DNA of 47,460 bases from Gemmatimonadota bacterium. Lineage in GTDB: Bacteria; Gemmatimonadota; Gemmatimonadetes; JACCXV01; JAHWKZ01. Position 1 is the first letter of the stretch. Each line of letters starts with the position of its first letter. The notes under the pieces are model-generated. The model made no database searches and had not been told where the DNA came from. It saw only the letters and a list, made by a program, of their open reading frames with translations. The translations under genes and the position numbers were made by a program. Shown here one piece after another: positions 18,739 through 47,460 of the stretch. Location of the stretch: NCBI GenBank assembly GCA_035698825.1, contig DASSBK010000160.1, positions 1 to 47,460 on the forward strand. The letters run 5' to 3'.

Positions 18739-18744
18739 CGTCGG

Positions 18745-19647
18745 CTACAAGTTGGCGGCGGTGAGGGGCTCGCGCACGGTCCGCCTCTGGAGAGTCAGGA
18801 AGATGCCGGCCAGGACGAGCGCGCCCCCGATCCAGGTCGCGGCGCGCGGCGTCTCCGCCAGGAGTAGCGCGGCCCAGAGGGCGGACCCCACGGGCTCGCC
18901 GAGGATCGCGACGTTGACCTTGAAGGCCGGCAGATAGCGGAGCGCGTAATTCATCGACGAGTGGCCGACGATCGTGGGGACGATCGCGAGGCCCGCCAGC
19001 GCCGCCCACGTCGCAGGTCCCCATCCGGCCAGGGCGCTCCCGGTGGCCAGCGCGCCCGCCAGGAGCCACGCCGCGGTGGCCGCATAGACGACGACCACGT
19101 ACGGGACCAGGTCCTTGGTCGCGCGCAGCATCTTGGCGAGCACGTAGTAGCCCGAGATCCAGAGCGCACCGAGAAGCGCCAGGAGGTCGCCCGCCAGCGC
19201 CCGCCGGTCGATGGCGAAATCGGCGCCGGCGATCACGACTGTCCCCGCGATGGCGAGTCCCATCCCGAGCCATGCGGTGCGGGACGGACGCTCGCGCAGG
19301 AAGGCGCGGCCGAGGACGGCCACGAACACGGGCTGCGTGCTGACCAGGACCCCCGATGCGGCGACCGAGGTGTATTCGAGCGACGAGATCCAGCACGCGA
19401 AGTGGAGGGCCAGGAGGAGCGCCGCGCCCGCGCCCGTCCACCAGTCGATCCCGCGCCACGCGCGCCAGAATCGGATCCGGGCCGCCCCGCAGAACGCCGC
19501 CAGGAGCGCCGCCGCCAGCGCCATTCGCCAGAACGCGATCGAGATCGCGGGGGCGTCGGCCCAGCGGACGAGGATCGCCGCCCAGGTGAGGGCGACGACT
19601 CCCAGCGTCATGACGGGTCCGGCGCGATGTCCGCGCCCCGGGCTCAT
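18745..19647 (-). CDS. EamA/DMT-superfamily transporter (10-TM type)
   Basis: 300 aa from ATG 19647, which overlaps the GT4 stop (ATGA). Two EamA-like halves (WISSLEYTSVAASGVLVSTQPVFVAVLG and GHSSMNYALRYLPAFKVNVAILGEPVGSALWA). ATG at 19611 is an alternative start. Confidence 0.8.
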   Translation of the reverse strand: MSPGRGHRAGPVMTLGVVALTWAAILVRWADAPAISIAFWRMALAAALLAAFCGAARIRFWRAWRGIDWWTGAGAALLLALHFACWISSLEYTSVAASGVLVSTQPVFVAVLGRAFLRERPSRTAWLGMGLAIAGTVVIAGADFAIDRRALAGDLLALLGALWISGYYVLAKMLRATKDLVPYVVVVYAATAAWLLAGALATGSALAGWGPATWAALAGLAIVPTIVGHSSMNYALRYLPAFKVNVAILGEPVGSALWAALLLAETPRAATWIGGALVLAGIFLTLQRRTVREPLTAANL

Positions 19648-20873
19648 CGGCCGATCGCCTCGCGGATCACGCGCTCCCACTCCGCGCAGCAGACGCCGCG
19701 CTCGAATCCCGCGCGGAAGGCGTCGCGAGCCCGTTCCCCCATCCGCCGCCTTCCCTCGGGATCCCCGCGCAGCGCGCGAAGCGTCTCGACCAGCCGATCG
19801 GTCGCCGACGTTCCTTCCTCGGCGGGGTCGATGACGTGTCCGATCCCCGCGTCCTCGATCGTGCGGCCGCTCTCCGATCCCCGCGGACCGATCATGACCA
19901 CCGGGCGTCCCGCGGCCATGATCCCGTAGAGCTTGACCGGGACCACGAGCCCGGCCATGTCGCCGCGCAGCGTGAGGAGGTGGACGTCCGCCAGCGTGAG
20001 CGAATCCGCCAGCTCGCGGCGCGGCCGGTAGTCGAGGTACCGGAAGTTCCGGTTGCGCCCGGCCCTGGCGACGATCTCCGCCTTGCGGGGGCCGCCGCCC
20101 ACGAACACGAACTCCATCCCCGGGTCGTCCGCGAGGCGATCCATGGCCCGCAGCACCTCGTCGAACCGATGGGCGAGGCCCGCGTTTCCCGAGTACATGA
20201 CGACGAACTCGTCCCCGATCCCGAGCTCCCGGGCGAGCGGATTGCCGGAGCGGCTCGCGCCGTCCGGCTCGACGTCGTGGCTCCACACCGGAATCGTCCG
20301 GATGGCGGAGGCGGAGACGCCCTTGTCGACCAGCCGCTCCTTCATGCGCGGTCCGAGCGCCACGACGAACTCCGCGCGCCGATGGCTCGCGCGATCGACC
20401 GGCTCGAGCGCCCGCGCGATCCAGGTCGGCAGGATTCCCAACGCGACCTCGATCTCCGGATGGACGTCCATCGACCAGATCGCGTACCGGCGGCCCCGCA
20501 CGAGGCGCGCGATCCACCCCGACACGGGCAGCATCGACGGCGTCGTCAGGAGGACGACGAGATCGCGACGCGGGCCAGTGGCGAGCCGCGCGGCGACCTG
20601 CGCGAGGAAGGCGACGTACTCGAGCAGGCGGCCGCGGTGGCTCCGCCTTCCGAGCGCGAGCGACGGGAGGCGCGTCACCCGCACGCCGCGCCGGATCTCC
20701 CGCGTGGGCGCGTCCACCCGCCCGCCCTCGTACGCCCCCTGGCTGCAGAGCACACCCACGTCGAACCCCCTGCCCACCAGGTGCTCGGCGAGATCGGAGA
20801 GGATCTGTCCCGTCGCGGCGACGTCGGGCCAGTAGTGCTGGTTGACGAACAGGATCGAGGGCTTCCGCGTCAC
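19644..20873 (-). CDS. GT4-family glycosyltransferase (WcaI/WbuB-like)
   Basis: 409 aa from a GTG overlapping the carbamoyltransferase stop (GTGA): VTRKPSILFVNQHYWPDVAATGQILSDLAEHLVGRGFDV... and PVKLYGIMAAGRPVV. The remainder of the 1213-aa track ORF is shadow. Confidence 0.8.
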   Translation of the reverse strand: MTRKPSILFVNQHYWPDVAATGQILSDLAEHLVGRGFDVGVLCSQGAYEGGRVDAPTREIRRGVRVTRLPSLALGRRSHRGRLLEYVAFLAQVAARLATGPRRDLVVLLTTPSMLPVSGWIARLVRGRRYAIWSMDVHPEIEVALGILPTWIARALEPVDRASHRRAEFVVALGPRMKERLVDKGVSASAIRTIPVWSHDVEPDGASRSGNPLARELGIGDEFVVMYSGNAGLAHRFDEVLRAMDRLADDPGMEFVFVGGGPRKAEIVARAGRNRNFRYLDYRPRRELADSLTLADVHLLTLRGDMAGLVVPVKLYGIMAAGRPVVMIGPRGSESGRTIEDAGIGHVIDPAEEGTSATDRLVETLRALRGDPEGRRRMGERARDAFRAGFERGVCCAEWERVIREAIGR

Positions 20874-22615
20874 GCGGGGCGGGGCTTCGTCACGACGAAC
20901 GGCCCGAGGACCAGGGTGTCCATCTGCGTCCGCAGAAAGCAGTCCAGGGCCTCTTCGGGCCGGTTGACGATGGGCTCGTTCTCGTTGAACGAGGTATTGA
21001 GGACCATCGGCACGCCGGTGCGCCGGGCGAAGCTCCGGATGAGCCGGTGGTACAGCGGGTTCGCCTCGGCCGTGACGGTGTGCGGGCGGCCCGAACCGTC
21101 GACGTGCGTGACCGCGGGGATCAGCGGCCGCTTCTCCTCCCGGATCCCGTAGACCTTCATCATGAACGGCACGTCGTCGTCGACCTCGAACCATTCCCCC
21201 ATCGCCTCGCGCAGGATGGAAGGGGCGAAGGGACGGAAGCGCTCGCGCAGCTTGATCTTCGCGTTCAGGACCTCGCGCATGTCGGCGCGGCGGGGATCGC
21301 AGAGGATGCTGCGGTTGCCGAGTGCCCGCGGGCCTAGCTCCATCCTCCCCTGGAACCACCCCAGGACCTCGCCGTCCGCGATCCGCTCGGCGACTTCCTC
21401 GCAGAGCGCCTCCTCGTCCGCGATCTCCCGCACCGAGCACGCCTCCAGCTCCCCCGCCGCGGAATCGAGCGCGCCCCGCAGGCTGTCGCGATCGTAGCCC
21501 GGACCGTAAAAGGAATGGATCATGGCCGCGGGGCGCTGTCCGCCGGAAGCCTCGCGCCAGGCGACCAGTGCGGCGCCGACCGCTCCGCCGCCGTCTCCCG
21601 GCGCGGGCGGCGCGAAGACTCTCCGGAATGGCGTCTCGCGCGTCACCTTCCCGTTGGCGACCGAGTTCATCGCCGCCCCCCCCGACAGGACCACCGCGTC
21701 CAGCCCATAGCGGGCATGGAGCGACCTCAGGAGCTCTAGGACCGCCTCCTCGAATCGCGCCTGCGCGGAGCGCGCGACATCGAAGTGGCGCTGCTCGAGC
21801 TCTTCCCCGTCCCGGCGCGCGGGACCCAGGAGCTCCTCCAGCGCCTCGGTGTAGTGCCGCTCGACGGTCGGGGCCCCGGACTCCCAGCGGTACGCGAGAT
21901 CCTCGCGATGGTGGCGGAAGAACTCGAGGTCGAGGCGGAACTCCCCGCCCGGCAGCGTCGTCACGACCTTCCGCATCTCCTCCATCCGGGTGGGCGACCC
22001 GTACGGCGCAAGCCCCATGACCTTGTACTCGTCTCCGTACTTCGGGAACCCGAGATACTGCGTGATGGCGAGGTAGAAGATCCCCAGCGAATGGGGAAAG
22101 TACACGCGCCCGTCGAGGCGCATCTCCACGCCGTGTCCCACGCCCCAGGAGGCGCTCGAGAAGTCCCCGAACCCGTCCACGGAGAGGAGCACGGCGTCGG
22201 CGAAGGGCGATACCAGGAACGCCGAGCCCTGGTGCGCGAGGTGGTGCTCGACCTTCTCGATCCGCCCGCCGAAGCGGCCCGGGCCGGAGCGGGAGAGATC
22301 TTCCTCGATGCCGCCGATCCGCCGCGCGTTCCGGAGCCGGTCGCGGACGAGCCCCACCTGCGGCCGGTGGCGGAGCCCCCACGCGATCTTGCGCCCGAGG
22401 TTCGCGCGTGGATCGCGATTGACCGCCACGACGTCCACGTCGCCCAGGTCGAGGCCTCCCTCGCGCAGGCACCACGCGATCGACTCGGCGGGAAAGCCTG
22501 CCCAGTGCTTGAGCCGCCGGAAGCGCTCCTCTTCCACCGCCGCGACCAGGCGGCCGTCGACGACGAGAGCCGCGGCCGCGTCGGCGTGGTAGGCGTTCAA
22601 GCCGAGCACGTTCAT
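20870..22615 (-). CDS. Carbamoyltransferase (NodU/CmcH family)
   Basis: 581 aa from ATG 22615 (residue 85 of the track ORF), which overlaps the upstream stop (ATGA). MNVLGLNAYHADAAAALVVDGRLVAAVEEERFRRLKHWAGFP, then SGGAAMNSVANG and the C-terminal NTSFNENEPIV. Confidence 0.88.
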   Translation of the reverse strand: MNVLGLNAYHADAAAALVVDGRLVAAVEEERFRRLKHWAGFPAESIAWCLREGGLDLGDVDVVAVNRDPRANLGRKIAWGLRHRPQVGLVRDRLRNARRIGGIEEDLSRSGPGRFGGRIEKVEHHLAHQGSAFLVSPFADAVLLSVDGFGDFSSASWGVGHGVEMRLDGRVYFPHSLGIFYLAITQYLGFPKYGDEYKVMGLAPYGSPTRMEEMRKVVTTLPGGEFRLDLEFFRHHREDLAYRWESGAPTVERHYTEALEELLGPARRDGEELEQRHFDVARSAQARFEEAVLELLRSLHARYGLDAVVLSGGAAMNSVANGKVTRETPFRRVFAPPAPGDGGGAVGAALVAWREASGGQRPAAMIHSFYGPGYDRDSLRGALDSAAGELEACSVREIADEEALCEEVAERIADGEVLGWFQGRMELGPRALGNRSILCDPRRADMREVLNAKIKLRERFRPFAPSILREAMGEWFEVDDDVPFMMKVYGIREEKRPLIPAVTHVDGSGRPHTVTAEANPLYHRLIRSFARRTGVPMVLNTSFNENEPIVNRPEEALDCFLRTQMDTLVLGPFVVTKPRPA

Positions 22616-23382
22616 GCGCGCTTCCTTCGCGCCTCCATGAGCTTGAGCGAAAGGATCCCTTCGGCGACCGCCCGCTGCGCCGTATAGTACAGGCCGGCTC
22701 TCCCGTCGAGGACCAGCCCGCGACCGAACAGGCAGTAGAGCGTGACCGCGGGAGGGCCCAGCACCATCGTGGAGCGCAGACGGTCGGCCCATCCCAGCTC
22801 GCGCATCGGGGAGACGGCCAGCTTGGCCGCCTCCCGCTCGGCGTACTTCGCCTGGTTCCGCAGCCACCGCTTGAGGCTCTTGCGGTCGTCGTGGAGGATC
22901 GGCGTGCGGAGCGAGCCGCTCGCGCCCGCGACGCGCACGCGCTGGGTGTGGCCGTCCTGGTCGAAGGCGGCGAGCTCCCTGCGGAACAGCACCTGACGCG
23001 GGGGATACAGCGATCCCCGCAGCTTCCGGCCGAGCACCACGTACTCGAACGGCGCGAAGAACCCGCTCTCGGCCGGCTCCTCCGGGAGCGCGGCGATCTC
23101 CTCGACGAGCGCGGGCGGGACCAGATAGTCGGCGTCCAGCGCCAGCGCCCAGGGGGTTTCGACGGCGGCGAGCGCGTAGTTGCTCTGCCCGGCGTGCGTA
23201 TCGAAGGCTCGCGAGCGCACCTCGACGTTGGGATGGGAGCGCGCGATCTCGACGGTGCGGTCGCTGCTCCCGCTGTCGACGACAAGCACGCGCCCGGCCC
23301 AGCGGAGCCGGGCGAGCACGCGCCCGATGTTCGGCTCCTCGTCGAACGTCAGGACGAACGGGGTGATGGCCGACAGATCCAC
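22612..23382 (-). CDS. GT2-family glycosyltransferase
   Basis: 256 aa from GTG 23382, 1 nt after the upstream TGA: VDLSAITPFVLTFDEEPNIGRVL...VLVVDSGSSDRT...LALDADY (DxD). Confidence 0.75.
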   Translation of the reverse strand: MDLSAITPFVLTFDEEPNIGRVLARLRWAGRVLVVDSGSSDRTVEIARSHPNVEVRSRAFDTHAGQSNYALAAVETPWALALDADYLVPPALVEEIAALPEEPAESGFFAPFEYVVLGRKLRGSLYPPRQVLFRRELAAFDQDGHTQRVRVAGASGSLRTPILHDDRKSLKRWLRNQAKYAEREAAKLAVSPMRELGWADRLRSTMVLGPPAVTLYCLFGRGLVLDGRAGLYYTAQRAVAEGILSLKLMEARRKRA

Positions 23383-23383
23383 G

Positions 23384-24532
23384 TCAGTCCCGCCGCACGC
23401 AAGCGGGCGCGTCGCGCTCGCCGGCCAGCCAGCGGTAGACGTCGAGCATGCGGCGGGCGATCGCGGGCCAGGCGAAGCGCTCCGCCACGAGCCGGCGGCC
23501 GCGCGATCCCATCTCGCGGCGATCGGCGTCCGGGAGCGCGGCCGCCTGCCGGATCGCCGCGGCCAGGGGCTCGACGCCGGCCTCGATCCACCAGCCGCAG
23601 CCATGCTCCACGAGCGACCGCCACGGCGCCGCGCGCGTCGTGATCACCGGCACCGAGCTCGCCAGCGCCTCGGCCACGACGGCGCCGAAGTTCTCGCTCG
23701 AGGTCGGCAGCACGAACACGTCCGCCGTTCCGTGGAGGTCCCACTTCTCCGCGTCGGGCACGGCGTCGCGGAATCGGATCCCCGCGTCCGCGCCGAGCTC
23801 CCTGGCCCGGCGCTCGATCGTCGCGCGGTGGCCGCGCTCGTCGGGGCCGGCGATGACGAGCTCCCAGCCCGCGGGGCGCGCCACCCGCCACGCCTCGACG
23901 AGCGGCTCGAGGCCCTTCGTGGGGTGGATGCGCGACAGAAAGAGGAAGCGCCGGGTCCGGTCCGGCGCGCCCGGATCGCGCTCGCCCGCCGGCGGCAGAT
24001 CGACGCCGTTGGGGACGATCGCGATCGGGACTCCGATCCCGGCCGCCCGGATCTCTTCGGCCTCGAGGTCGGAGGTCGCGTGCAGTGCGTCGGCCGCCTC
24101 GAGGTCGCGCTCCTGGTACGCGCGCCACGCGATCCGCTTCCGCCAGCCGCGATGCGCGAGGGACCACTCCGACAGCATTCCCCGCGGGCTGACGATCCGC
24201 GCCACTGATCGCCGCGCCGCGACGCGGGCCGTGGCGCGGTTGCTGTCGAGCCAGATCCCGTGGTCGTGCACCGCGCGCGCGCGCGTGGCGGCGAGCCGCT
24301 CTTCGAGGAGTCGCGTGAAGGGACGCCGCCGCGGCTGCACCCTTCCCCATCGGCGGGCCACCCCCGAGGCGCGCACTGGAACGCCGGGGTCGAACCCGGC
24401 TTCGCCGGTCACGATCTCGATCCCCGCGCCCATCTGCGCTAGGGATCGGCACAGGGCGGCGACGGAGCGCGCCGGCCCGCCCTCGGCGTGCGCGAGGCGC
24501 GCGATCGTGTGCACGACGGAAACCTCGGTCAC
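23384..24532 (-). CDS. GT4-family glycosyltransferase
   Basis: 382 aa from a GTG overlapping the upstream stop (GTGA). FLFLSRIHPTKGLEPLVEAW and PTSSENFGAVVAEALASSVPVITT (EX7E). Confidence 0.8.
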   Translation of the reverse strand: MTEVSVVHTIARLAHAEGGPARSVAALCRSLAQMGAGIEIVTGEAGFDPGVPVRASGVARRWGRVQPRRRPFTRLLEERLAATRARAVHDHGIWLDSNRATARVAARRSVARIVSPRGMLSEWSLAHRGWRKRIAWRAYQERDLEAADALHATSDLEAEEIRAAGIGVPIAIVPNGVDLPPAGERDPGAPDRTRRFLFLSRIHPTKGLEPLVEAWRVARPAGWELVIAGPDERGHRATIERRARELGADAGIRFRDAVPDAEKWDLHGTADVFVLPTSSENFGAVVAEALASSVPVITTRAAPWRSLVEHGCGWWIEAGVEPLAAAIRQAAALPDADRREMGSRGRRLVAERFAWPAIARRMLDVYRWLAGERDAPACVRRD

Positions 24533-25665
24533 GAGCGCCCGCGCACGCCGCGCGTGTCGAGGATCTGCTCGAGCCGCGCCCGGAACCGCTCGGGCCCGAA
24601 GCTCTCGATGACGCGCCGCCGCAGCCGGGCGGGGTCGTAGATCGCGCGATTGGGATGCCTGCCGCTCAGGACTTCCACGGCCGCCGCCGCGAAGGCTCCC
24701 ACGTCGTCCGGGTCGACCAGCACGCCGATCTCCCCGTCGAGCAGCGCGTCCCGCGCGCCGTCCCGGTCGCCGGCGATCGCGGGCTTGCCGCACGCCATCG
24801 CCTCGAGGTAGACGATCCCGAACCCCTCGCGCTTGCTCGGCATCGCGAAGGCGCTGCAGAGAGCGTAGTAGTCCGGCAGCTCCGCGTCGGGAACCGGCCC
24901 CGTCAGCGTCACGCACGACGCGAGCTCGAGGTCCCGCACGCGCCCCTCGATCCTCGCCCGGTCGTCCCCCTCCCCGACGAGGACATAGCGGAGTCCCGGG
25001 ATCCGGGCGCGGATCGCGGGCAGCGCCTCGAGCACGAGGTCGTATCCCTTGTGGCGGTCCTGTCCGGCCAGCCTCGCAACGGTGAGCAGCACGGGCTGAC
25101 CGGGCTCGACGCCGAGTTGCGCCATGAGCGCCGGCGAGGGCTCGCGGGGGCGGAACAGCGCGGGGTCGAACGTCCCCGGTAGGAGCGCGATCCGCGACGG
25201 GTCGAGAGCCTGCTCCTCGATCAGGCGGCGCTCCGTGTACCGGCTCACCGACAGGACGCAATCCGCCCTCGCGAGCGCGCGCTTCAGCGCCGGCCGCTCG
25301 ACGCCCCACGCCTCGATGCCATGGGCCACGATCCAGAAGGGGCTCCCCGTGCGCGGCAGCCAGTCGAAGACCGCGGCGAAGTTCAGATGCCCGACGACGA
25401 TCAGACGCGGCCGGTCGACCAGGGCGCGGAGCGCCACCGCGGCCGCAAAGGCCGGCGTCCGGATCCGGCGCGGCACCGCGCCGCTCGCGTGAACGCGCAC
25501 TCCGGGAAGCCGCGCGCCGTTCGCGCGATCGTTCTTGAGAAAGACTTCGTACTCGGGCTCCGGCCAGGCCTGGCGGAGCGCAGCGAGCAGGAACCCGGAG
25601 TACCGCTGGATGCCGCCGTGGGTCGCGGCGAGATCCGGCAGCCAAACGTGGCAGGAGACGCTCAC
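24529..25665 (-). CDS. GT4-family glycosyltransferase
   Basis: 378 aa from a GTG overlapping the upstream stop (GTGA). LLTVARLAGQDRHKGYDLVLEAL and PSKREGFGIVYLEAMACGKPAIAG (EX7E). Confidence 0.8.
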   Translation of the reverse strand: MSVSCHVWLPDLAATHGGIQRYSGFLLAALRQAWPEPEYEVFLKNDRANGARLPGVRVHASGAVPRRIRTPAFAAAVALRALVDRPRLIVVGHLNFAAVFDWLPRTGSPFWIVAHGIEAWGVERPALKRALARADCVLSVSRYTERRLIEEQALDPSRIALLPGTFDPALFRPREPSPALMAQLGVEPGQPVLLTVARLAGQDRHKGYDLVLEALPAIRARIPGLRYVLVGEGDDRARIEGRVRDLELASCVTLTGPVPDAELPDYYALCSAFAMPSKREGFGIVYLEAMACGKPAIAGDRDGARDALLDGEIGVLVDPDDVGAFAAAAVEVLSGRHPNRAIYDPARLRRRVIESFGPERFRARLEQILDTRGVRGRS

Positions 25666-26831
25666 CGCACCTTCCCGCGCACGTACGCGACTGCCTGCAG
25701 GGTGCCGTCCACCGCGCGCTCGGCCGAATACGATGCCACGTGCGCGCGCGCCCGGCGGCCCATCTCCGCGCGCGCGGCGCCATCCGCGCTCATCGCGAGG
25801 AGCGTCCGCGCGAGCGCGTCTACGTCTCCGAAGGGGAAGATCCGCCCGGTCTTCCCGTCGATCACGAGATCGGGCCCGCATCCCACGCGATCGCTGACGA
25901 TCGCGGGAAGCCCGTGGACCATCGCCTCGTTGACGACCAGGCCCCAGGTCTCCCCGTAGTCGGAGGGAAGAACCAGGCAGTCGGCCGCCACGTACGCGCG
26001 GCTGATCTCCGACTGGTTCAGGAATCCGGCGAATTCCGCCCCCGCCTCGTGACGCGCGGCATACCCTCTGGCAACCCCCTCCATCTCCCCGGTTCCCACC
26101 ACCAGCGCGCGGATCCGTGGATCGCTCCGGCGGGCGTTCGCGCACGCCGCCAGGAAGTCGAGAACGCGCTTCTTGCGAACGAGCTTTCCAGCGAACAGGA
26201 AGCAGATCTCCTCCGGAGCGACGCCCCAACCGGCGCGGATCGAGTCCCGCTCCGGCATCCGCGCAGCCGCCTGGGCGGCGAAGCGCTCGTTGTCCACGAA
26301 GTACGGGACGGGGAATATCCGCTCCGCGGGCACGCCGTTCCGCAGGTAGAACTCGCGGTTCGCCCGGCCGATGGCGAGGCACGCCTCGAAGCGGGCGAGA
26401 AGCCACCGATGGGCCGCGCGCATCCAGATCGCCCGGCGGCGCAGTCCGCTCGACTCGGCACGAACGAGACACGGGATCCCCAGCCGGCGGCAGGCGCGCA
26501 GGACCTGGAGGAGCGGCAGAGCGTTCCATCCCCCCACGATGACGGCCTCCGGGCGGTCGCGCGCGAGCGCCGCTTCCACTCCCGGCGTCCGGCTCGTGAA
26601 GAAGCCCCCCAGCGACGGCTCCCGGGCGGTGTTCTCGAGCTCCTCCCATCGATAGCCGTCGAGGAGAGGCACGTCCCACGCGAAGTCCGTCCCGAAGCCC
26701 ACGCCCTGCTGCCGGGGGCCGGGAAGGAGCGCGAAATAGACGGTGAGATCCACGCCCTCGCGGCGCGCGAGCGCGCGATACCACGGAACCTGGTACTGGA
26801 CCGGGTGGGTCGCCGCGATCGCCAGCTTCAA
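25662..26831 (-). CDS. GT4-family glycosyltransferase
   Basis: 389 aa. The only start near the domain boundary is TTG at 26831 (TTGA overlap with the upstream stop): LKLAIAATHPVQYQVPWYRAL..., FLFAGKLVRKKR and PSDYGETWGLVVNEAMVHGLPAIVS. Confidence 0.75.
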   Translation of the reverse strand: MKLAIAATHPVQYQVPWYRALARREGVDLTVYFALLPGPRQQGVGFGTDFAWDVPLLDGYRWEELENTAREPSLGGFFTSRTPGVEAALARDRPEAVIVGGWNALPLLQVLRACRRLGIPCLVRAESSGLRRRAIWMRAAHRWLLARFEACLAIGRANREFYLRNGVPAERIFPVPYFVDNERFAAQAAARMPERDSIRAGWGVAPEEICFLFAGKLVRKKRVLDFLAACANARRSDPRIRALVVGTGEMEGVARGYAARHEAGAEFAGFLNQSEISRAYVAADCLVLPSDYGETWGLVVNEAMVHGLPAIVSDRVGCGPDLVIDGKTGRIFPFGDVDALARTLLAMSADGAARAEMGRRARAHVASYSAERAVDGTLQAVAYVRGKVR

Positions 26832-31826: not shown

Positions 31827-31828
31827 GC

Positions 31829-34706: not shown

Positions 34707-34714
34707 CGCCGCCT

Positions 34715-39013: not shown

Positions 39014-39936
39014 CTCTCGCGGACGGTCTCGACGGTCGGCACGCGCGATGCCAGGATCGCGCGCTGCAGATTCTTCCAATAGAGTGTCCGCAGGAGGAAG
39101 TGGGGATTCGCCCTGGCCGAGGCGCCCAGGATCCGGATCGCCAGACGTGACTCCCCTCGCCGCATCAACCGGTCGCACACGAACAGCATCTTCCCCCAGA
39201 TCACCTCCCGCAGAGCGGCGATTCTCTCTCGCTCCAGGTCGCGGCCGTGAGTCCACCCCAGGGCTTCGAGATACGCCAGCAGGCTGTTCTGAAGGATCAC
39301 GTCCGTATTGCCGGCGTGTCGGCGGCACACGACCACCGGATCCGGCCCTCCGGCGACGATGTGCGCCGACAGAATCAGTTTGGCCCACAGGGCGAGATCC
39401 TCGCAGGTTCTGAGGCGCTCGCTGAACCCTTCCGCCTCCACGAAGCATCGCCGCCTGAGGAGGATCGAGTTCGTATTCCACCGGATGCCCGGGCCCGGCG
39501 CCACATCCGGCAGCAGCGAATCTCTATGGGTTTCTCTGGGGGCCCCGTCCTCTTCCTGGACCAGATACCGCTCGGCGACTCCGTCGATCGTGGGATCCCC
39601 GTCCAGCAAGGGCACGGCGACGCGGAACCGGTTCGGGAGCGCGACGTCGTCGGAGTCGAGGAAGCAGACGTAGGCTCCGGTGGACACCCGCACTCCCAGG
39701 TTCCGGGAGGCTCCAGGGCCGTGATTGCCGCCGTCTTCATGCTGGAAGACCCGGATCCGCCCGGAGTGGCCGCGCTCCAGCTCCCGGGCTCCGTTCAACG
39801 TGTCGTCGCTCGACCCGTCGTCGACGATCACGATCTCGAGGCCCGGATAGCCGGTCGCGATCAGGGAATCGACCGCCCCGACCAGAAAATCGAGACGGTT
39901 GCGGACGGGGACGATGACGGACACGGGGGTGGTCAT
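39010..39936 (-). CDS. GT2-family glycosyltransferase (paralog of 34715-35713)
   Basis: 308 aa, ATG start. VSVIVPVRNRLDFLVGAVDSLIAT...VIVDDGSSDDT...GPGASRNLGVRVSTGAYVCFLDSDD. Confidence 0.85.
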   Translation of the reverse strand: MTTPVSVIVPVRNRLDFLVGAVDSLIATGYPGLEIVIVDDGSSDDTLNGARELERGHSGRIRVFQHEDGGNHGPGASRNLGVRVSTGAYVCFLDSDDVALPNRFRVAVPLLDGDPTIDGVAERYLVQEEDGAPRETHRDSLLPDVAPGPGIRWNTNSILLRRRCFVEAEGFSERLRTCEDLALWAKLILSAHIVAGGPDPVVVCRRHAGNTDVILQNSLLAYLEALGWTHGRDLERERIAALREVIWGKMLFVCDRLMRRGESRLAIRILGASARANPHFLLRTLYWKNLQRAILASRVPTVETVRER

Positions 39937-39942
39937 AGGCGG

Positions 39943-40716
39943 TCAGGAGCGTCGGGTCAGTAGTCGTCTGAAGCGCCCGGCGGGACCGCCCCCGTGTTCG
40001 AAGGCCTCCTTGCACCGGTTGTACAGCTCGCGATCCTGGCGGTTGTAGCGTCGGATGACGTCCGCCTCGTTCGGCGTCGGACGCGACGCGTCCGTCGGAC
40101 GGACGACGTTCTTCTCGCGATATGTACCGATCCGCAGCCCCGTCATGCGCCGCAGACGCTGCAGGGTCTCGTCGAATCTCTCGAGGAGCCCGACGAGCAA
40201 AAAGTCTCTCTCGATGTTCGTCCAGGCCTCTTCGAGCAGCGCGCTGTGGTCTTCGCCGTACCCGACGACGGAAGGACCGTAGGGGGCCTGCGCGATGTCC
40301 TCCACACCGCTGATCTGACGTACCTGGCCGTCGTTCACCTCTGTCGTGATCCCGCTCTCCACATAGTCGGCGACCGTCATCTTTCCGCTCACCACCGCGG
40401 AGTGGAGGTAATGGTTCTCGTGCGAGCGCACGAAGTCGAAGTGGGAGACCACGCGGGAGACCGGTTCACGCACGATGGTGAAATACCGCGCGCGTCTCGG
40501 GGCAAGCAGCTCGTGCCAGCCGTAACAGAGGTGGCCGAGGAGCAGTTCGATGCGCTCGCGCTCGGTTTCGGAGAGTCCGGCCAGCTCGTTCCTCGAACCG
40601 GCGATGTTCCTCCCGTCGACCGAAAAGCGACGATCCTCCGGTACCGCCTCCGTGAGAATCGACGTCAACGTGGTGCCCCCGCATTTCGGAATGTGCATGA
40701 AGATCAGGGGCTGCAT
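39943..40716 (-). CDS. Sulfotransferase family 2-like protein (HS6ST-like P-loop)
   Basis: 257 aa from ATG 40716, 5 nt after the wzt stop. LIFMHIPKCGGTTLTSIL (compare the animal 6-O-sulfotransferase HIQKTGGTT type) and YFTIVREPVSRVVSHF (3'-PB type). Confidence 0.75.
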   Translation of the reverse strand: MQPLIFMHIPKCGGTTLTSILTEAVPEDRRFSVDGRNIAGSRNELAGLSETERERIELLLGHLCYGWHELLAPRRARYFTIVREPVSRVVSHFDFVRSHENHYLHSAVVSGKMTVADYVESGITTEVNDGQVRQISGVEDIAQAPYGPSVVGYGEDHSALLEEAWTNIERDFLLVGLLERFDETLQRLRRMTGLRIGTYREKNVVRPTDASRPTPNEADVIRRYNRQDRELYNRCKEAFEHGGGPAGRFRRLLTRRS

Positions 40717-40721
40717 GGACC

Positions 40722-41999
40722 CTATTCCCGAGCCGTCGGGGCCTGCCAGACCAGCAGGGGTGCGATCTCTCCTGGCCGCCCGAGCACCACGTAGTCCGGA
40801 TTCGGCACGTCGAACAGCACGTTGATGGCGGGGCCCTCGACGTCCCTGAGCAGCCAGCCCCGACCGTGGATGGTCGCGCATGGATGGATGTGATAGATGC
40901 CCCCGTTCAGGAGATCGGCTGGTATGACGGCCTGAAGGATATGCGCATCCCGTCCGGTCTCCGTCAGGAGCTCCTCTCGATCGTTGTGAAACGTCTGGAA
41001 CACGAGGCCGCCGGTCAGGGCGTGGAGCTCGAAGCCGATCTTCAGGAAGGGCATGGGCCGCCGGAGCTTGAATTCGAACTCCACCACGACTGGCTCCTGG
41101 CTCTTGAAGTCGGCACGGATGTCCCCTTCGATCGAACGCGTCCTCACGGCCAGGAGTTGAAAGGGCTCGTCTTCCGAAGCGTTCGCGAAACGAACTTCTC
41201 CATACCGTGGCCCGCTGCTGGGGTTCGAGGAGAGGTAGCGGTCGATCGTCTCCGCGGCCGGGCCGTCCATCACGACCTGTCCGTCCTTCAGCAGGATCGC
41301 GCGCTTGCAGAGAGAAGCGATGGCGGACATGTGATGGCTGACGAAGATCACAGTGCGACCCTCCTTCGACACCTCGTCGAGCTTGCCGAGGCATCGCTTC
41401 TGGAAGGCCGCGTCTCCCACCGCCAGGACCTCGTCGACGAGCAGGATCTCCGGCTCCAGATGAGCGGCGATGGCGAACGCGAGCCGCACCCGCATGCCGG
41501 AGGAATACCGCTTGACCGGCGTATCCATGAACCGCTGCACGCCTGAGAATTCGACTATGTCGTCGAACTTCCGCTGGATCTCCGATCGTGTCATTCCGAG
41601 GATCGCGCCGTTCAGGAACACGTTCTCGCGTCCCGTCAGCTCGGGATGGAAGCCCGTACCGACCTCGAGCAGGCTTCCGACGCGACCGTGCAGCTCTATC
41701 CGTCCCTGCGTGGGCATGGTGATCCGGGAAAGGATCTTGAGCAACGTGCTCTTGCCCGCTCCGTTCTCCCCCACCAGGCCGACGACTTCCCCGGTTTCGA
41801 TGCGGAAATCGACGTCCCGCAGAGCCCATATGCGATCCCCCGTACCATTACCCGCGCCGGCGACGTCGCCGACCTTCCACGGCTCGGCGTCGTTCCGCGT
41901 GCGGTGCCACCAGCGCTGAAGGTCCTCCCGCAGAGTGCCGGCTCCGATCATGCCCAGGCGATACTGCTTGGACACGTTTTCGACGCGAATCACGCTCAT
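40722..41999 (-). CDS. wzt: Polysaccharide ABC exporter ATP-binding protein Wzt with a C-terminal carbohydrate-binding-type domain
   Basis: 425 aa. Walker A GENGAGKST, signature YSSGMRVRLAFA, Walker B ILLVDEV. An extra ~170-aa beta-rich C-terminal domain (residues ~255-425) has the length and position of Wzt_C. Confidence 0.88.
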   Translation of the reverse strand: MSVIRVENVSKQYRLGMIGAGTLREDLQRWWHRTRNDAEPWKVGDVAGAGNGTGDRIWALRDVDFRIETGEVVGLVGENGAGKSTLLKILSRITMPTQGRIELHGRVGSLLEVGTGFHPELTGRENVFLNGAILGMTRSEIQRKFDDIVEFSGVQRFMDTPVKRYSSGMRVRLAFAIAAHLEPEILLVDEVLAVGDAAFQKRCLGKLDEVSKEGRTVIFVSHHMSAIASLCKRAILLKDGQVVMDGPAAETIDRYLSSNPSSGPRYGEVRFANASEDEPFQLLAVRTRSIEGDIRADFKSQEPVVVEFEFKLRRPMPFLKIGFELHALTGGLVFQTFHNDREELLTETGRDAHILQAVIPADLLNGGIYHIHPCATIHGRGWLLRDVEGPAINVLFDVPNPDYVVLGRPGEIAPLLVWQAPTARE

Positions 42000-42014
42000 G
42001 CTCGCCCTCTCGGC

Positions 42015-42887
42015 CTATACCGTGTCCATGAAATTGCGTTCGACCCGATTGAAGAGCAGGACACCGCAGATCAGGATCACGAGAGTGAACACGAAGCTGT
42101 AGGCCAGGTGGCCGAAGCTCACCGTGCCGGCTCCCAGGAAGCCGAACCGGAACGCCTCCACCAGCGAGGACATCGGGTTCAGCAGGACCAGCAGCCGGTA
42201 TCCGTCCGGCACCTCTGACAATGGGTACACGATCGGGGTCGCATACATCAGGAGCTGCACCCCGAAGGTGACCAGGTTGCTCAGATCGCGATAGCGGGTC
42301 GTCAGGGAGGACACGATGATGCCGAAACCCAGCCCCAGCGCTCCCATGAGCAGGACCACGATCGGAGCCGCCAGCATCCACGCGTTGGGATCCACCGGGG
42401 ATCCCCGAAATCTGAAGTACACCAGGAACGCGAGGAACAGCGCGAACTGGATTCCGAACGCGATCATGCTGGAGATCGAGATCGAAACCGGAATGGCCAT
42501 GCGCGGGAAATAGACCTTGCCGAACATGCTGGCGTTGGCGATGAACGTACTGGAAACCTTCGTGAGCGTGGTAGCGAAGTAACTCCAGATCACGTAGCCC
42601 GCGAAATAGAACAGAAAGGGCGGCAGGCTGTCGGTCGGGATGCGGGCGATGCGACCGAACACGATCGTGAACGTGACCGTGGTCAGGAGCGGCTGAATCA
42701 CGTGCCACGCGGGCCCCAGGATCGTCTGCTTGTACTGGGCGAGGAAGTCCCGACGCACGAACAACGCGACGAGATCCCGGTATCGCCACAGCTCTCCGAG
42801 CCGGAAATCGAGCCATCTGGTCTCCGGACCCAGAATCGTGACCCATCGGTCTTCGGCCGCGTGGTCGAGTTCACGAGTCACGTTCAT
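42015..42887 (-). CDS. wzm: Polysaccharide ABC exporter permease Wzm (ABC-2 type)
   Basis: 290 aa. LWRYRDLVALFVRRDFLAQYKQTILGPAWHVIQPLL, the typical ABC-2/Wzm/KpsM N-terminal motif, followed by 6 TM segments. Confidence 0.9.
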   Translation of the reverse strand: MNVTRELDHAAEDRWVTILGPETRWLDFRLGELWRYRDLVALFVRRDFLAQYKQTILGPAWHVIQPLLTTVTFTIVFGRIARIPTDSLPPFLFYFAGYVIWSYFATTLTKVSSTFIANASMFGKVYFPRMAIPVSISISSMIAFGIQFALFLAFLVYFRFRGSPVDPNAWMLAAPIVVLLMGALGLGFGIIVSSLTTRYRDLSNLVTFGVQLLMYATPIVYPLSEVPDGYRLLVLLNPMSSLVEAFRFGFLGAGTVSFGHLAYSFVFTLVILICGVLLFNRVERNFMDTV

Positions 42888-42991
42888 CGCTCTCGTTCCC
42901 TCATGTCCGTTGGTGGTCCCGCCCGGTCCGCTCGGTGTCGCGGACCACGGATCGGATCCGATGGACGGCGATCATGCCGCGTGGCGAGGGA

Positions 42992-45141
<2,150 letters not shown>

Positions 45142-45154
45142 GCAGGACCTCGAG

Positions 45155-45871
45155 TCAGATCTTCTTTTGCCGGGTCTCCCAGCGACCGGAAACGCTGACC
45201 CACAGGGATAGAGCGATGAGACGAACGTCGAGCCACAGGGACCGCCTCCGTATATAGAGCAGGTCGTAGCGGAATTTCCTCCTGCGGTCCACGTCCTTGG
45301 GCAGGTACAGAGTGGCCAGGCTGGTGAGTCCGGGAAGTACGCTCATCCGCCGCCGGAACTCCGGCAAGCGGTCCCAGACGGTGGGATTCCCGTCGTCGTC
45401 GTGAACCACCTCCCCGAACGCGAGCGGTCGCGGACCGACGAAGCTCATCTCCCCCTTCATGATGTTGAGGACCTGCGGCAACTCGTCGATGCCGAAGCTG
45501 CGCAGCACGGCGCCTACTCGCGTGACCCGATCGTCTTCGTCGCAGGCCTCGACCACGCCGTGCTTCTCGTCCGAGTCCGGCACCATCGTCCGGAACTTGA
45601 ACAACTCGAAGAGCTTGCCCCCTCGACCCCATCTGCGCTGCCGGTAGAGAACCGGCCCGCCGTCCTCGAGCTTGACCGCCAGCGCGATCAGCGGCCAGGC
45701 GGGTGCGGTCGTCAACAGCAGAACTCCACCGAAGGCGAGGTCCAGGGCCCGCTTCGACAGGGACTCGCTTTCCAGGGGGATGAGTTCTTCGGCGGCGGCC
45801 CCAGTCACGACCGAGAGGGGGCTTGCCGTGGTCGTGGCGGGGAATGGCGCCGCAGATGGCGATGGTGTCAC
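45155..45871 (-). CDS. Small monotopic phosphoglycosyl transferase (bacterial sugar transferase family), the initiating enzyme
   Basis: 238 aa. GTG start 6 nt after GGAG. SKRALDLAFGGVLLLTTAPAWPLIALAVKLEDGGPVLYRQRRWG, KFRTM, DELPQVLNIMKGEMSFVGPRP and LPGLTS. Confidence 0.85.
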   Translation of the reverse strand: MTPSPSAAPFPATTTASPLSVVTGAAAEELIPLESESLSKRALDLAFGGVLLLTTAPAWPLIALAVKLEDGGPVLYRQRRWGRGGKLFELFKFRTMVPDSDEKHGVVEACDEDDRVTRVGAVLRSFGIDELPQVLNIMKGEMSFVGPRPLAFGEVVHDDDGNPTVWDRLPEFRRRMSVLPGLTSLATLYLPKDVDRRRKFRYDLLYIRRRSLWLDVRLIALSLWVSVSGRWETRQKKI

Positions 45872-45949
45872 GCAGTCTCCTTCGTAGGCGTATAGGTCCC
45901 GAAGTCGACCCGGACTTCGCGCGAAAGATCCCCCGGAAATGCCCGCAAG

Positions 45950-46930
45950 TCAAGTCGCAGGGCGGGATTCGCTCAACCGCGTTTCGATCTCCGCAGACCG
46001 GCGCGGAGTCATCAGCGAGTGGAGGATCTTCCACGTTCGCGGATAGGTGGATTCGAGGCCCGCCTGACGCGCCGCGACGAACCACTCGAATAGGTCGCGT
46101 GGCGTGTCGAGGTCCCGTTCCGGCGCGAGCATGCGGAACGCGATTCCGCGCTCGGCGAGGCGGTCGCGGACGGCATCGAGCTCGCGGCCCGTGCTCCAGG
46201 GGATGTCCCTGAGGAGACCCGCAGCAGTTCGCGCGAAGCCGATCAGATAGAGGCCTCCGTCGTCGGCCGGACCAAGCACGACGGGCGCCGTTTCCAGGGC
46301 GCTCCATGCTTCGCCGATCCGCGCGATCGTCAGCCCCGGGCAATCGCTTCCCACGACGACGACGCGACCCGCCTTGCCGCGCTGGATCTGCCCGACCACC
46401 GCCTCGATCCGCTCGCCGAGATCTCCGGGCGGCTGAATCAGGAGCCGGCGCCGGGGACCGAGAAGACGCTCGAGGTGCCGCCGGCTCGTGGCGGGCGTGA
46501 AGGCGACCGTCAGGCGCGCGTCCGCGGATTCGGCGACCTCGATCGTGTCGACGAGGAGCGCCCGGTACAGGTCCGCGGCCTCGTCGGCCCCGAGCGCCGG
46601 TGTGAGGCGGGTCTTCACGCTCCCGGGGATGGGCGCCTTGGCGAAGATCGCGACCTCGGGGCGTGGCCCGCGCGGGCGCGACGGCCGGCTCGCCGGCCGT
46701 CCGCGGCCCGCCGCAGCGGCACGCGGCCTGCCGGCGCCGCGCCCCTTGCCTCGTTCCTTCCCACCGGACCGCCCCTTCCCGCCGGGACGGTCGCCCTTCG
46801 CGCCGGTTCCGCGTCCCTTCCCACCCGCTCCGCGTCCCTTCGCGCCGGGCCCGCGACCCTTCCCGCCCGGTCCCCGCCCCTTGCCGCCGGAGCCGCTCCG
46901 GCCTCCTCCGCCGGTGGGCCGATCCACCAC
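45950..46930 (-). CDS. DUF2064/TIGR04282-type glycosyltransferase-like protein with a ~90-aa Gly/Lys/Arg-repeat N-terminal extension
   Basis: Core: VAIFAKAPIPGSVKTRLTP...VVVGSDCPGL...GPADDGGLYLIGF. There is no ATG/GTG/TTG between the core and GTG 46930/46927, which directly follows the upstream TAG, so the repeat region appears to be translated. Confidence 0.65.
   Translation of the reverse strand: MVDRPTGGGGRSGSGGKGRGPGGKGRGPGAKGRGAGGKGRGTGAKGDRPGGKGRSGGKERGKGRGAGRPRAAAAGRGRPASRPSRPRGPRPEVAIFAKAPIPGSVKTRLTPALGADEAADLYRALLVDTIEVAESADARLTVAFTPATSRRHLERLLGPRRRLLIQPPGDLGERIEAVVGQIQRGKAGRVVVVGSDCPGLTIARIGEAWSALETAPVVLGPADDGGLYLIGFARTAAGLLRDIPWSTGRELDAVRDRLAERGIAFRMLAPERDLDTPRDLFEWFVAARQAGLESTYPRTWKILHSLMTPRRSAEIETRLSESRPAT
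46730..46888 (-). repeat. Degenerate 21-nt (heptad) coding repeat, [G/A]-K-G-R-G-x-G
   Basis: Minus-strand translation gives GGKGRGP GGKGRGP GAKGRGA GGKGRGT GAKGDRP GGKGRS GGKERG KGRGAG. The plus strand shows the matching CCCTTCCC/CCCTTCGC periodicity. Confidence 0.8.
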
Positions 46931-47460
46931 CTAGCCCCTCCTGCGAAGGAGCGCTTCGCGGAGCGCTCCGGTGATACGGCGGGGCGGCATGCCGCGCATG
47001 GCGTCGGAGGAGGGCGGGACGATTCCCCGCGTCCGGAGCCATCCCGCCGCGCGCCCGCGGAGCTCCCAGTACCTCGTGCGGTGGCGGATCCAGGGCATGA
47101 GACCGGGAGGCAGCTGGTAGCGTTCCATCTGGCGCTCGAGCCTCCGCGGGTCGATCCGATGACCGAGCCGGTCCGCGAGCTCGAGCACCACCGGGTGCGA
47201 CTCGTACACGCGCCAGACGTCGCCGAGCGGGCGCTGCTCCCGGGAGCGGTCCCAGGTCGCGTTCCGCCGAGCCGGATCCAGGGGGACACGCTCCATAAGA
47301 TCCAGGCCCGCGAACTCCGCCAGCCTCGCGACCACTCCGGCGGGGGCCGCGAATAGCTCTTCCGAGGAAACGGAGAGAAACGGAACGTCGGGCAACCGCG
47401 CGTGTGTCTCCAGCGCCGCGGCGTGCCGTTCGGCCCATTCGTAGAGGATCCTCTCGAACA
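46931..47460 (-). CDS. Probable sulfotransferase, C-terminal part only (5' end beyond the window)
   Basis: The frame of the 154-aa track ORF stays open upstream to the window edge (hand translation ...FERILYEWAERHAAALETHARLPDVPFLSVSSEELFAAPAGVVARLAEFAGLD...). The YE.L...P......L..F.GL tail resembles sulfotransferase C-termini. The PAPS loop is not visible. Confidence 0.45.
   Translation of the reverse strand, partial: FERILYEWAERHAAALETHARLPDVPFLSVSSEELFAAPAGVVARLAEFAGLDLMERVPLDPARRNATWDRSREQRPLGDVWRVYESHPVVLELADRLGHRIDPRRLERQMERYQLPPGLMPWIRHRTRYWELRGRAAGWLRTRGIVPPSSDAMRGMPPRRITGALREALLRRRG

Follow-up and report, generated by a model that had tools for sequence, protein, structure and literature searches.

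The DNA analyzed here is the 47,460-nucleotide contig DASSBK010000160.1 (assembly GCA_035698825.1; hereafter the window), part of the metagenome-assembled genome (MAG) of a soil Gemmatimonadota bacterium, and the subject is a block of surface-glycan genes in it that is rich in sulfotransferases. Raw open reading frame lists were swamped by spurious frames because of the G+C content of about 70%. For gene calling, a model of codon bias was trained on this sequence itself, and it gave 45 genes (g1–g45). The glycan block comprises g19–g45, 27 consecutive minus-strand genes that run without interruption from 19644 to the window end, the same number as counted in an earlier sequence-only reading of this DNA. 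At 19 of the 26 junctions the neighboring genes overlap by at least 4 bp and at one they abut with zero gap, while sizeable gaps occur only between fcl and wzm (104 bp) and between the DUF2064 and phosphoglycosyltransferase genes (78 bp). Since most junctions overlap, g19–g45 are likely to form one transcription unit, an operon of about 28 kb.

The features are collected in Table 1. Pfam searches bore out five GT4-type and eight GT2-type glycosyltransferases (GTs), a DUF2064 protein, a phosphoglycosyltransferase, the transporter pair Wzm/Wzt, an Fcl-type enzyme and a carbamoyltransferase, all of which had been listed in the sequence-only reading; that list added up to 26 genes, as the flavoprotein g42 had been left out. 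Six sulfotransferases had also been listed, of which five (g28, g29, g30, g34 and g38) pass the Pfam thresholds, whereas the partial g45 does not.

Table 1. Features of the glycan locus and its surroundings. Positions refer to the window unless another contig is named.
Gene	Feature	Position	Strand	Support
g19	GT4, last gene of the glycan block	19644-20873	minus	Glyco_trans_4_4 57 bits, Glycos_transf_1 35 bits
g20	O-carbamoyltransferase (NodU/CmcH/TobZ/NovN family)	20870-22615	minus	Carbam_trans_N 172 bits, Carbam_trans_C 231 bits
g21	GT2	22612-23382	minus	Glycos_transf_2 50.6 bits
g22, g23, g24	Tandem GT4s	23384-24532, 24529-25665, 25662-26831	minus	Glycos_transf_1 91, 127, 102 bits
g25	WaaL-like polytopic membrane protein (O-antigen ligase family)	26828-28237	minus	11 transmembrane-like segments
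g26, g27	GT2	28234-29202, 29199-30173	minus	Glycos_transf_2 46 and 86 bits
g28	Sulfotransferase	30170-31048	minus	Sulfotransfer_3 71.3 bits; GAQKAASTW; RDPIDRAWS
g29	Sulfotransferase	31041-31826	minus	Sulfotransfer_3 74.1 bits; HPRSGTT; RDCRPVTAS
g30	Sulfotransferase	31829-32716	minus	Sulfotransfer_3 76.0 bits; LPRSGTN; RDGRDIACS
g31, g32, g33	GT2	32674-33657, 33654-34718, 34715-35713	minus	Pfam; g32 also Glyco_transf_7C
g34	Sulfotransferase	35710-36690	minus	Sulfotransfer_3 30.8 bits (cutoff 27); YRSGTTW; RHPAAVVGS
g35	GT4	36675-38024	minus	Glyco_trans_1_4 70.6 bits
g36, g37	GT2	38021-39013, 39010-39936	minus	Glycos_transf_2 88 and 97 bits
g38	Sulfotransferase, Sulfotransfer_2/Gal-3-O-sulfotransferase type	39943-40716	minus	Sulfotransfer_2 31.4 bits (cutoff 22), Gal-3-0_sulfotr 27.3 bits (cutoff 27); IPKCGGTT; REPVSRVVS
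g39	Wzt ATPase with C-terminal extension of ~170 residues	40722-41999	minus	ABC_tran 87 bits
g40	Wzm permease	42015-42887	minus	ABC2_membrane 66.5 bits
g41	GDP-L-fucose synthase (Fcl type)	42992-43972	minus	Epimerase 186 bits
g42	Geranylgeranyl-reductase-family flavoprotein	43969-45141	minus	FAD_binding_3 53.6 bits
g43	Small monotopic PglC-like polyprenyl-phosphate phosphoglycosyltransferase	45155-45871	minus	Bac_transf 180 bits
g44	DUF2064/TIGR04282 nucleotidyl- or glycosyl-transferase-like protein	45950-46930	minus	DUF2064 96 bits
g45	Sixth sulfotransferase, C-terminal 175 residues; gene runs past the window	46931-47460	minus	Sulfotransfer_3 17.9 bits
ST7	Seventh sulfotransferase	L001 2593-3381, past the window end	opposite strand	Sulfotransfer_3 103 bits, Sulfotransfer_1 49 bits
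g16, g17, g18	Thioesterase (4HBT), asparaginase II-CMD fusion, EamA transporter	16616-19611	minus	Pfam
	Terminator-like hairpin	16576-16562	minus	
	Omp85-PD40 protein, 979 residues	13551-16490		
	BamB	12285-13295		
	EutN/CcmL pentamer-type microcompartment vertex protein	7541-7828		99.7 bits
	BamG-like barrel	5092-6291		

The sulfotransferases were identified by two motifs that bind 3'-phosphoadenosine 5'-phosphosulfate (PAPS), the 5'-phosphosulfate-binding (PSB) loop and the 3'-phosphate-binding (3'PB) segment, and those quoted in the sequence-only reading are present where it had placed them. A PSB-type loop followed 70–130 residues on by R-x7-S occurs in g28, g29, g30, g34, g38, extended g45 and ST7, a further gene just past the window end; the remaining 38 window proteins lack the pair. 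Judged by their sequences, g28, g29, g30, g34 and g38 are members of the PAPS-sulfotransferase superfamily, and PAPS binding and sulfate transfer can be predicted for them. No transmembrane-like segment was found in any of the sulfotransferases, and pairwise identity among the seven does not exceed 30% in any alignment of some length; they thus appear to be old, divergent, cytoplasmic enzymes and not recent duplicates. NCBIfam gave no equivalog name to any of them: g29, g30 and ST7 matched NoeE weakly, and all equivalog cutoffs were missed widely. In sequence searches of the PDB g30 matched TPST1/2 (3e-5) and the CurM sulfotransferase, and nothing significant was found with g34, g38 or g45. 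The PSB loop of g28 is non-canonical (KAAST). This gene is accessory, with a GC content of 0.646 and no ortholog in L008, one of the related loci designated L001–L019. The gene g38 lies directly downstream of wzt and was found in L006 and L017 and is missing from L008 and L019.

The weakest complete sulfotransferase by profile score, g34, is also the most widely conserved one of the locus, with 93 homologs, the named ones coming from Gemmatimonadota and Longimicrobiales MAGs; its NCBI entry is a hypothetical protein (locus tag VFH82_06570). The fold test by structural modeling was made with g34 only. An AlphaFold2 (AF2) model built with 36 homologs reached a predicted local distance difference test score (pLDDT) of 92.3 and a predicted template modeling score (pTM) of 0.91. 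When this model was compared with the PDB by Foldseek, all of the top 50 matches were PAPS sulfotransferases (template modeling (TM) scores 0.34-0.54), including the CurM sulfotransferase, TPST1/2, Stf1, SULTs and NDST. The model thus confidently assigns the PAPS-sulfotransferase fold to g34, and for this protein the lack of such a fold, named in the sequence-only reading as grounds against sulfation, was not seen.

The sixth sulfotransferase, g45, had been described as a partial gene at the window edge. Its missing half, with a canonical PSB loop, is supplied by the JGI contig L001, which matches the window at 99.95% identity and reaches 5.4 kb past its end. In this contig the genes upstream of the operon are, in order, uppS, cdsA, dxr, ST7 (on the opposite strand), rseP and g45. 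The full annotated g45 (308 residues) scores 27.0 bits on Sulfotransfer_3, for which the cutoff is 27. Adding the PSB-coding stretch upstream does not raise the Pfam score (Sulfotransfer_3 26.6 bits, Sulfotransfer_1 17 bits). The annotated GTG start excludes the PSB loop, which is encoded in frame just upstream (TTDRSGTTLL), and RHPVVTAAS follows downstream. Because of this canonical in-frame loop, and because longer homologs of the family have PRSGTT at the loop position, g45 is very probably a sulfotransferase with a mis-annotated 5' end. Alignment of the g45 family with g34 and g30 by hhalign matched the motifs, with a score that was not significant.

In the in-frame region ahead of the g45 start (L001 4896-5033, about 430-570 bases past 47460), an ATG overlapping the rseP stop codon (TAATG) is followed by eight codons (PGPSGPGR), a TAG and then RREIAIPHPVLLTLTTDRSGTT. 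The in-frame TAG and the same layout are found in L015 (83% identical) and L011 (68% identical) with synonymous changes, and in L013 and L014 the frame ahead of the loop is open, yet contains no ATG, GTG or TTG before the loop. In all lineages examined, the Ile codon of the I(P/S)HP motif is ATT or ATC, with GGGA located 8-10 nt upstream. The sequence pattern suggests that g45 may use AUU/AUC initiation or UAG read-through. The divergent gene ST7 is inserted between dxr and rseP, splitting the otherwise universal uppS-cdsA-dxr-rseP string, and its position is conserved in L011.

The other decorating enzyme of the operon, g20, carries both a Carbam_trans_N (Kae1-like) and a Carbam_trans_C (YrdC-like) domain. 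Its residues 1-578 align end to end with the solved structures of NovN (9s2t, 3e-90), GdmN and TobZ (3ven, 4e-78), and a partial NodU match reached 131 bits against a cutoff of 1000. The only sugar-nucleotide gene of the locus is g41, which aligns end to end with GDP-L-fucose synthases in the PDB (8du0, 1.6e-65; 1bws, 1e-60) and scores 278 bits on the NCBIfam Fcl model, under its cutoff of 500 bits; L-fucose is therefore a likely constituent of the predicted glycan. The GAG- or fucoidan-like (GAG, glycosaminoglycan) polyanion that the sequence-only reading had proposed found no backing, as no uronic-acid or hexosamine pathway gene was detected at the locus, and a GAG-like backbone was dropped. 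The phosphoglycosyltransferase g43 has one hydrophobic segment and its NCBIfam EPS_sugtrans match is limited to the C-terminal catalytic domain. Between g43 and g41 sits g42, with 148 bits on TIGR02032 (GG-red-SF; cutoff 158.8); it is 93% identical in L008, whose other genes are 56-86% identical, and occupies the same position in L011. Speculatively, g42 may saturate the polyprenol carrier, which would give a dolichol-like lipid in a bacterium. For g44, 169.9 bits were obtained on TIGR04282 (cutoff 134), and its long form is backed by a 342-residue ortholog in L011.

On sequence grounds, g39 and g40 form a Wzm/Wzt exporter pair encoded within the glycan locus. The best PDB match of g39 was a 404-residue 'ABC transporter' chain (7k2t/8dku, 8.6e-65, query residues 55-322), which we take to be the full-length Wzt of the Aquifex aeolicus O-antigen system, followed by TarH/TagH and mycobacterial RfbE. 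The Wzt_C profile, a search proposed in the sequence-only reading, gave no significant domain in the C-terminal part of g39 (E 0.024, 15 bits against a cutoff of 30.4), and this part is 22% identical to the C-terminus of the L008 Wzt, which does have a Wzt_C match. A carbohydrate-binding domain in the extension is plausible but unproven; such a domain is a feature of the terminator-coupled subclass of Wzt proteins only. On the NCBIfam models of galactan Wzm/RfbD and KpsM, g40 stayed below the cutoffs (50 bits on the KpsM equivalog against 300).

The membrane protein g25 had been called Wzy/WaaL-like, and of this label the WaaL part received structural support while the Wzy_C match stayed below the cutoff (20.4 bits against 31.7). 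Its AF2 model (pLDDT 83.7) has WaaL (7tpg) as the best fold match in the PDB, with an E-value of 2e-7 and TM-scores of 0.52/0.59, followed by FtsW and RodA with the next matches at 6e-5, in a type of search that does not tell WaaL apart from Wzy or from protein O-oligosaccharyltransferases of the PglL type. No sequence was found in the PDB with a profile of 38 g25 homologs, some of which carry the automatic names 'O-antigen ligase family protein' (NCBI) or 'O-antigen ligase' (JGI). As the sequence-only reading had stated, Wzx, Wza/Wzc and KpsDE are absent at the Pfam level from the 45 window genes, and neither these nor other Kps genes, a Wzy polymerase, a polysaccharide co-polymerase (PCP) or an outer membrane polysaccharide export (OPX) protein was found among them or in the 5.4 kb beyond. 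Because Wzm/Wzt is present and Wzx is not, a polymerase is not needed, and the economical reading of the g25 model is that the protein would act as a ligase. The absence of Wza/Wzc and KpsDE fits a product that is linked to lipopolysaccharide (LPS) and taken outward by Lpt. A capsule (Kps) system was ruled out, as its defining genes, those for the export proteins KpsE/KpsD and the linker enzymes KpsC/KpsS, were not detected in the window by Pfam, and so was a synechan-type (xss) system, of which the window has no Wzx, Wzy polymerase, PCP or regulator genes.

The synteny search proposed in the sequence-only reading gave collinear loci from related soil lineages (L006, L008, L011 and L012). In the GTDB Gemmatimonadetes MAG L006, collinearity extends from wzt to g27, with 69-87% amino-acid identity. 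The L007/L008/L011 lineage is more distant (g34 65% identical), yet the entire frame is retained in the order rpsB-tsf-pyrH-frr-uppS-cdsA-dxr-(ST7)-rseP-g45-DUF2064-PGT-flavoprotein-Fcl, where PGT is the phosphoglycosyltransferase, followed by GT2/GT4, g34, GT2s, two sulfotransferases, GT2s, the WaaL-like gene and GT4s. Between L008 and the window the flanking genes are 56-93% identical, with g22-g27 best conserved (78-86%; g22, g23 and g24 78-84%), in contrast to 36% for Wzm and 44% for Wzt. The GT2s g31 and g32 are 73-77% identical in L008 and recognisable in the distant L010 and L009. L008 lacks g38, g33 and g28, and has a methyltransferase and a different sulfotransferase beside the transporter. 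In the window, the GC content drops to 0.61-0.64 over g38, wzt and wzm (39943-42887; g40 0.606) compared with 0.70 for the cluster, and the low-GC genes g38-g40 and g28 are the ones replaced or missing in the L008 lineage. The low Wzm/Wzt identity amid conserved flanks, together with the GC dip at g38-g40, points to exchange of the wzm-wzt cassette and part of the sulfotransferase set on a conserved GT backbone, by recombination or horizontal transfer. The related lineages thus retain the GT backbone together with g25 and the carbamoyltransferase but exchange sulfotransferases and the wzm-wzt cassette, and as far as gene content tells, the locus varies in the manner of a serotype-like surface antigen.

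A third lineage, L012 (GCA_036556305.1), is likewise collinear, with the carbamoyltransferase and the g19 ortholog in the same places, more sulfotransferases and an acetyltransferase-sulfotransferase fusion. In the latter (L012 5086-6276), a hexapeptide-repeat acyltransferase is joined to Sulfotransfer_3 in one gene, making it a single-polypeptide acetyl/sulfo decorating enzyme. The distant L010 has Wzm/Wzt, a g34-type sulfotransferase and the GT core, and adds a pyruvyltransferase. In the Gemmatimonadota clade carrying the locus, each copy normally has five to seven sulfotransferases, and its decoration pattern varies in the way of serotype determinants. Scanning GTDB genomes with g38 retrieved one locus, and scanning metagenomes with the C-terminus of Wzt retrieved four. 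Also compared was L019 (2629-13609), an unrelated Wzm/Wzt locus from a metagenome; the C-terminus of its Wzt shares 43% identity with that of g39, and the locus has an FkbM methyltransferase directly after wzt, two Sulfotransfer_3 genes and a B12-binding radical SAM gene just upstream of wzm. By its gene content, L019 shows that ABC-type glycan loci with putative sulfotransferases recur outside the Gemmatimonadota clade.

Among the closest parallels are the ABC-type O-antigen pathways of E. coli O8/O9a, Klebsiella O12 and Aquifex aeolicus, with which the locus shares Wzm and Wzt, predicted completion of the chain on a polyprenyl carrier in the cytoplasm, a WaaL-like ligase, the lack of Wzx/Wzy/PCP/OPX and a Wzt extension at the position of the carbohydrate-binding domain. 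In contrast to these pathways, priming would be by a small Bac_transf phosphoglycosyltransferase and not WecA, 13 single-domain GTs stand where those pathways have a few multidomain enzymes, the window lineage lacks a terminator of the WbdD or WbbB type, the Wzt_C match is below significance, and six sulfotransferases and a carbamoyltransferase are added. The rhizobial enzymes NodH/NoeE/LpsS and NodU belong to the same superfamilies as those of the locus, and, as predicted for the locus, they add sulfate and carbamoyl groups to a cytoplasmic glycoconjugate, but their substrates are lipo-chitooligosaccharides or existing LPS, and only one or two modifying enzymes are involved.

The sequence-only reading had held that characterized bacterial systems usually involve one or two sulfotransferases and that the locus matches no described pathway. 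Both statements proved too strong. The sulfated capsule of Vibrio sp. KMM 8419, a chemically proven product, is made from an ABC-transporter-type locus with three sulfotransferases spread over about 80 genes, with cysNDC in the cluster and cytoplasmic sulfation before export proposed (PMC11641403), and ABC-type sulfotransferase clusters have been predicted in cyanobacteria (PMC8205485). Sulfotransferase genes within an ABC-transporter-type polysaccharide cluster are common to the Vibrio system and our locus. The former is a gammaproteobacterial capsule, whereas the window contains neither PAPS nor capsule export genes, and sulfotransferase density is far higher in our locus (six in 28 kb plus one adjacent). 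The synechan xss cluster of Synechocystis PCC 6803 combines two sulfotransferases, eight GTs, Wzx/Wzy/PCP and the regulators XssQ/R/S on a megaplasmid; its OPX gene is encoded elsewhere, and the gene numbers roughly matched the sugar and sulfate stoichiometry (PMC8205485). Sulfotransferases of different subfamilies clustered with GTs are found in both, but the locus has none of the Wzx/Wzy/PCP, the regulators or the megaplasmid location of xss. In the marine Kiritimatiellae member Pontiella sulfatireligans F21, a putative sulfated GAG-like cluster contains one sulfotransferase among eight GT2/GT4 genes, and a sulfated polymer was detected by a dye assay (PMC7356697); as in our locus, a sulfated exopolymer was predicted from a sulfotransferase amid GT2/GT4 genes. 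A full-text literature search found nothing linking Gemmatimonadota with sulfotransferases or sulfated glycans. What is new in the locus is the exceptional sulfotransferase density combined with a carbamoyltransferase, in an O-antigen-type context and an unstudied phylum, while the kind of system has precedents.

Taken together, we consider it fairly probable that the locus encodes an ABC-transporter-dependent, O-antigen-type surface glycan, which would receive its sulfate and carbamoyl groups in the cytoplasm before Wzm/Wzt exports it and the WaaL-like g25 ligates it. Of the multi-site sulfated, carbamoylated, Wzm/Wzt-exported glycan put forward in the sequence-only reading, the enzyme families, the g34 fold, the gene coupling and the conservation have stood, and sulfation itself is still a prediction. 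Synthesis would start with priming of a polyprenyl-phosphate carrier, the presumed acceptor, by g43, as its family membership indicates, and the adjacent g42 may, speculatively, saturate this carrier. The 13 single-domain GT2/GT4 enzymes, assigned by family, and possibly the DUF2064 protein g44 would then build the chain on the cytoplasmic face. The six soluble PAPS-type sulfotransferases, so classified by family, soluble character and, for g34, fold, and the TobZ/NovN-type g20 would decorate the still-cytoplasmic chain, a substrate suggested by the gene context; since the sulfotransferases are mutually divergent, they probably act at different acceptor sites. In ABC-transporter-dependent pathways the chain is completed on the cytoplasmic face before export, and the cytoplasm is the only compartment that offers PAPS and carbamoyl phosphate to soluble enzymes. 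For these reasons, decoration is expected to precede export. By homology, Wzm/Wzt would export the finished lipid-linked polyanion. In the periplasm, g25 would transfer it, most likely to lipid A-core, from where Lpt would carry it to the surface, so that Wza/Wzc or KpsDE would not be needed; the ligation acceptor and the number of sulfates per repeat are what we infer.

Several observations weigh against this interpretation. Besides the subthreshold Wzy_C score and the ambiguous fold class of g25, g45 meets its Pfam cutoff just marginally, and among solved proteins, those most closely related to the Sulfotransfer_3 genes sulfate protein tyrosines or polyketides and not glycans. The PAPS-synthesis genes sat, cysDN and cysC were not found at the Pfam level in the window, in line with the sequence-only reading, nor in L001-L019. 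In addition, ABC-type O-polysaccharides are usually made by few, often multidomain, enzymes, and 13 single-domain GTs are many for such a polymer; due to this atypical set, the operon may encode a long non-repeating oligosaccharide or a core plus an O-chain.

A core plus an O-chain would mean two joined pathways, with LPS outer core synthesis and ligation in g19-g27, the O-chain in g28-g45, the carbamoyl group on the core and the sulfate on the O-chain. The first half holds four GT4s, three GT2s, the WaaL-like gene and the carbamoyltransferase, and the second the PGT, Wzm/Wzt, GT2s and sulfotransferases. In enterobacterial waa operons waaL likewise lies among core GT genes, and the conservation described above divides the same way: g22-g27 are the best-conserved genes against L008, and the variable or absent ones (g28, g33, g38, wzm and wzt) all lie in g28-g45. 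However, all the genes are translationally coupled as one unit with no internal break, and neither the carbamoyltransferase nor the GT4 genes match a recognisable Waa equivalog. We regard this division as possible but rather doubtful, and it refines the O-antigen-type interpretation rather than truly opposing it. A different acceptor is also conceivable, with the same biosynthesis and g25 acting as a PglL/WsaB-type O-oligosaccharyltransferase onto surface or S-layer proteins, or else a free or capsular polymer. Wzm/Wzt with a Wzy_C-type transferase and many GTs is the layout of the S-layer glycan (slg) clusters of Firmicutes, which the locus resembles; the Wzy_C superfamily includes protein O-oligosaccharyltransferases, g25 is under the Wzy_C cutoff and has no relative in the PDB at the sequence level, and 13 GTs would suit a long defined oligosaccharide. 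On balance, such a product seems unlikely, given that WaaL is the best fold match of g25 by a clear margin, that some of its homologs are automatically named as O-antigen ligases, that outer-membrane machinery (BamB, Omp85, BamG-like) is encoded nearby and that capsule export genes were not found in the window.

The glycan might instead be lightly or not at all sulfated, the sulfotransferase-like proteins being inactive, using another donor or acting on lipid A, metabolites or peptide tyrosines. The TPST and polyketide sulfotransferase relatives, the KAAST loop of g28, the marginal Pfam score of g45 with its conserved in-frame TAG near the 5' end, the missing PAPS genes and the divergent orientation of ST7 outside the operon could all be explained in this way. 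On the other hand, the sulfotransferase genes are interleaved and translationally coupled with GTs and all have intact PSB and 3'PB motifs, the fusion in L012 is typical of glycan decoration, and independent Wzm/Wzt loci with sulfotransferases exist (L019; Vibrio). We therefore hold weak or absent sulfation to be quite unlikely. At the other extreme, one may picture a soil Gemmatimonadota clade coated with an LPS-linked glycan that owes almost all its charge to sulfate esters at five to seven sites, is built on a partly saturated polyprenol and has its export gated by the Wzt C-terminus, which would read a sulfated chain end made by g38 in place of a methylated or phosphorylated one, with the hygroscopic, metal-binding polyanion possibly aiding success in dry soils; this combination is highly speculative and decidedly improbable. 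The exchange in L008 of the wzm-wzt-g38 cassette for one with a methyltransferase and another sulfotransferase would fit a sulfate cap. Nevertheless, this evidence is not specific: in L019, the nearest other locus with a related Wzt C-terminus, a methyltransferase gene follows wzt and g38 has no counterpart. The cap idea is therefore kept only within this improbable picture.

Sulfated polysaccharides have a central place in the biology of animals and algae; in bacteria, to our knowledge, they are treated as rare and as a mostly cyanobacterial or marine trait. The Gemmatimonadota are soil bacteria that are abundant and poorly represented in culture. If six or seven sulfotransferases do act on one surface glycan, the phylum would be a candidate major terrestrial source of sulfated glycans, with consequences for the retention of water in soil, metal binding, the cycling of organic sulfur and recognition by phages or predators. 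The operon would also offer glycoengineering a compact set of divergent, predicted bacterial carbohydrate sulfotransferases.

Downstream of the glycan block, g18, g17 and g16 follow with spacings of 32, 6 and -4 bp. No sigma-70-like promoter and only one terminator-like site were found in 13000-21000, and since the first and only minus-strand terminator-like hairpin comes after g16, these three genes are probably co-transcribed with the glycan genes. The CMD domain of g17 is carboxymuconolactone decarboxylase-like, and the same EamA/asparaginase II-CMD/thioesterase trio lies 3' of the terminal GT4 in L012. The remainder of the window below 19.6 kb carries housekeeping and envelope genes (SecDF, TatD, alanine racemase, MazG, a class II aminoacyl-tRNA synthetase, BamB, an Omp85-PD40 protein, asparaginase II and EamA), and tRNA and Rfam searches of the window gave no matches. 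A lone EutN/CcmL-type gene lies between those of a DNRLRE-domain protein and a cytidine deaminase, with no BMC-H shell gene in the window. The Omp85-PD40 protein, which has the BamG-like and BamB genes nearby, is unusual in its architecture, since PD40/WD40-like beta-propeller repeats occur together with a weak stretch resembling Peptidase_MA and an Omp85 barrel at the C-terminus.

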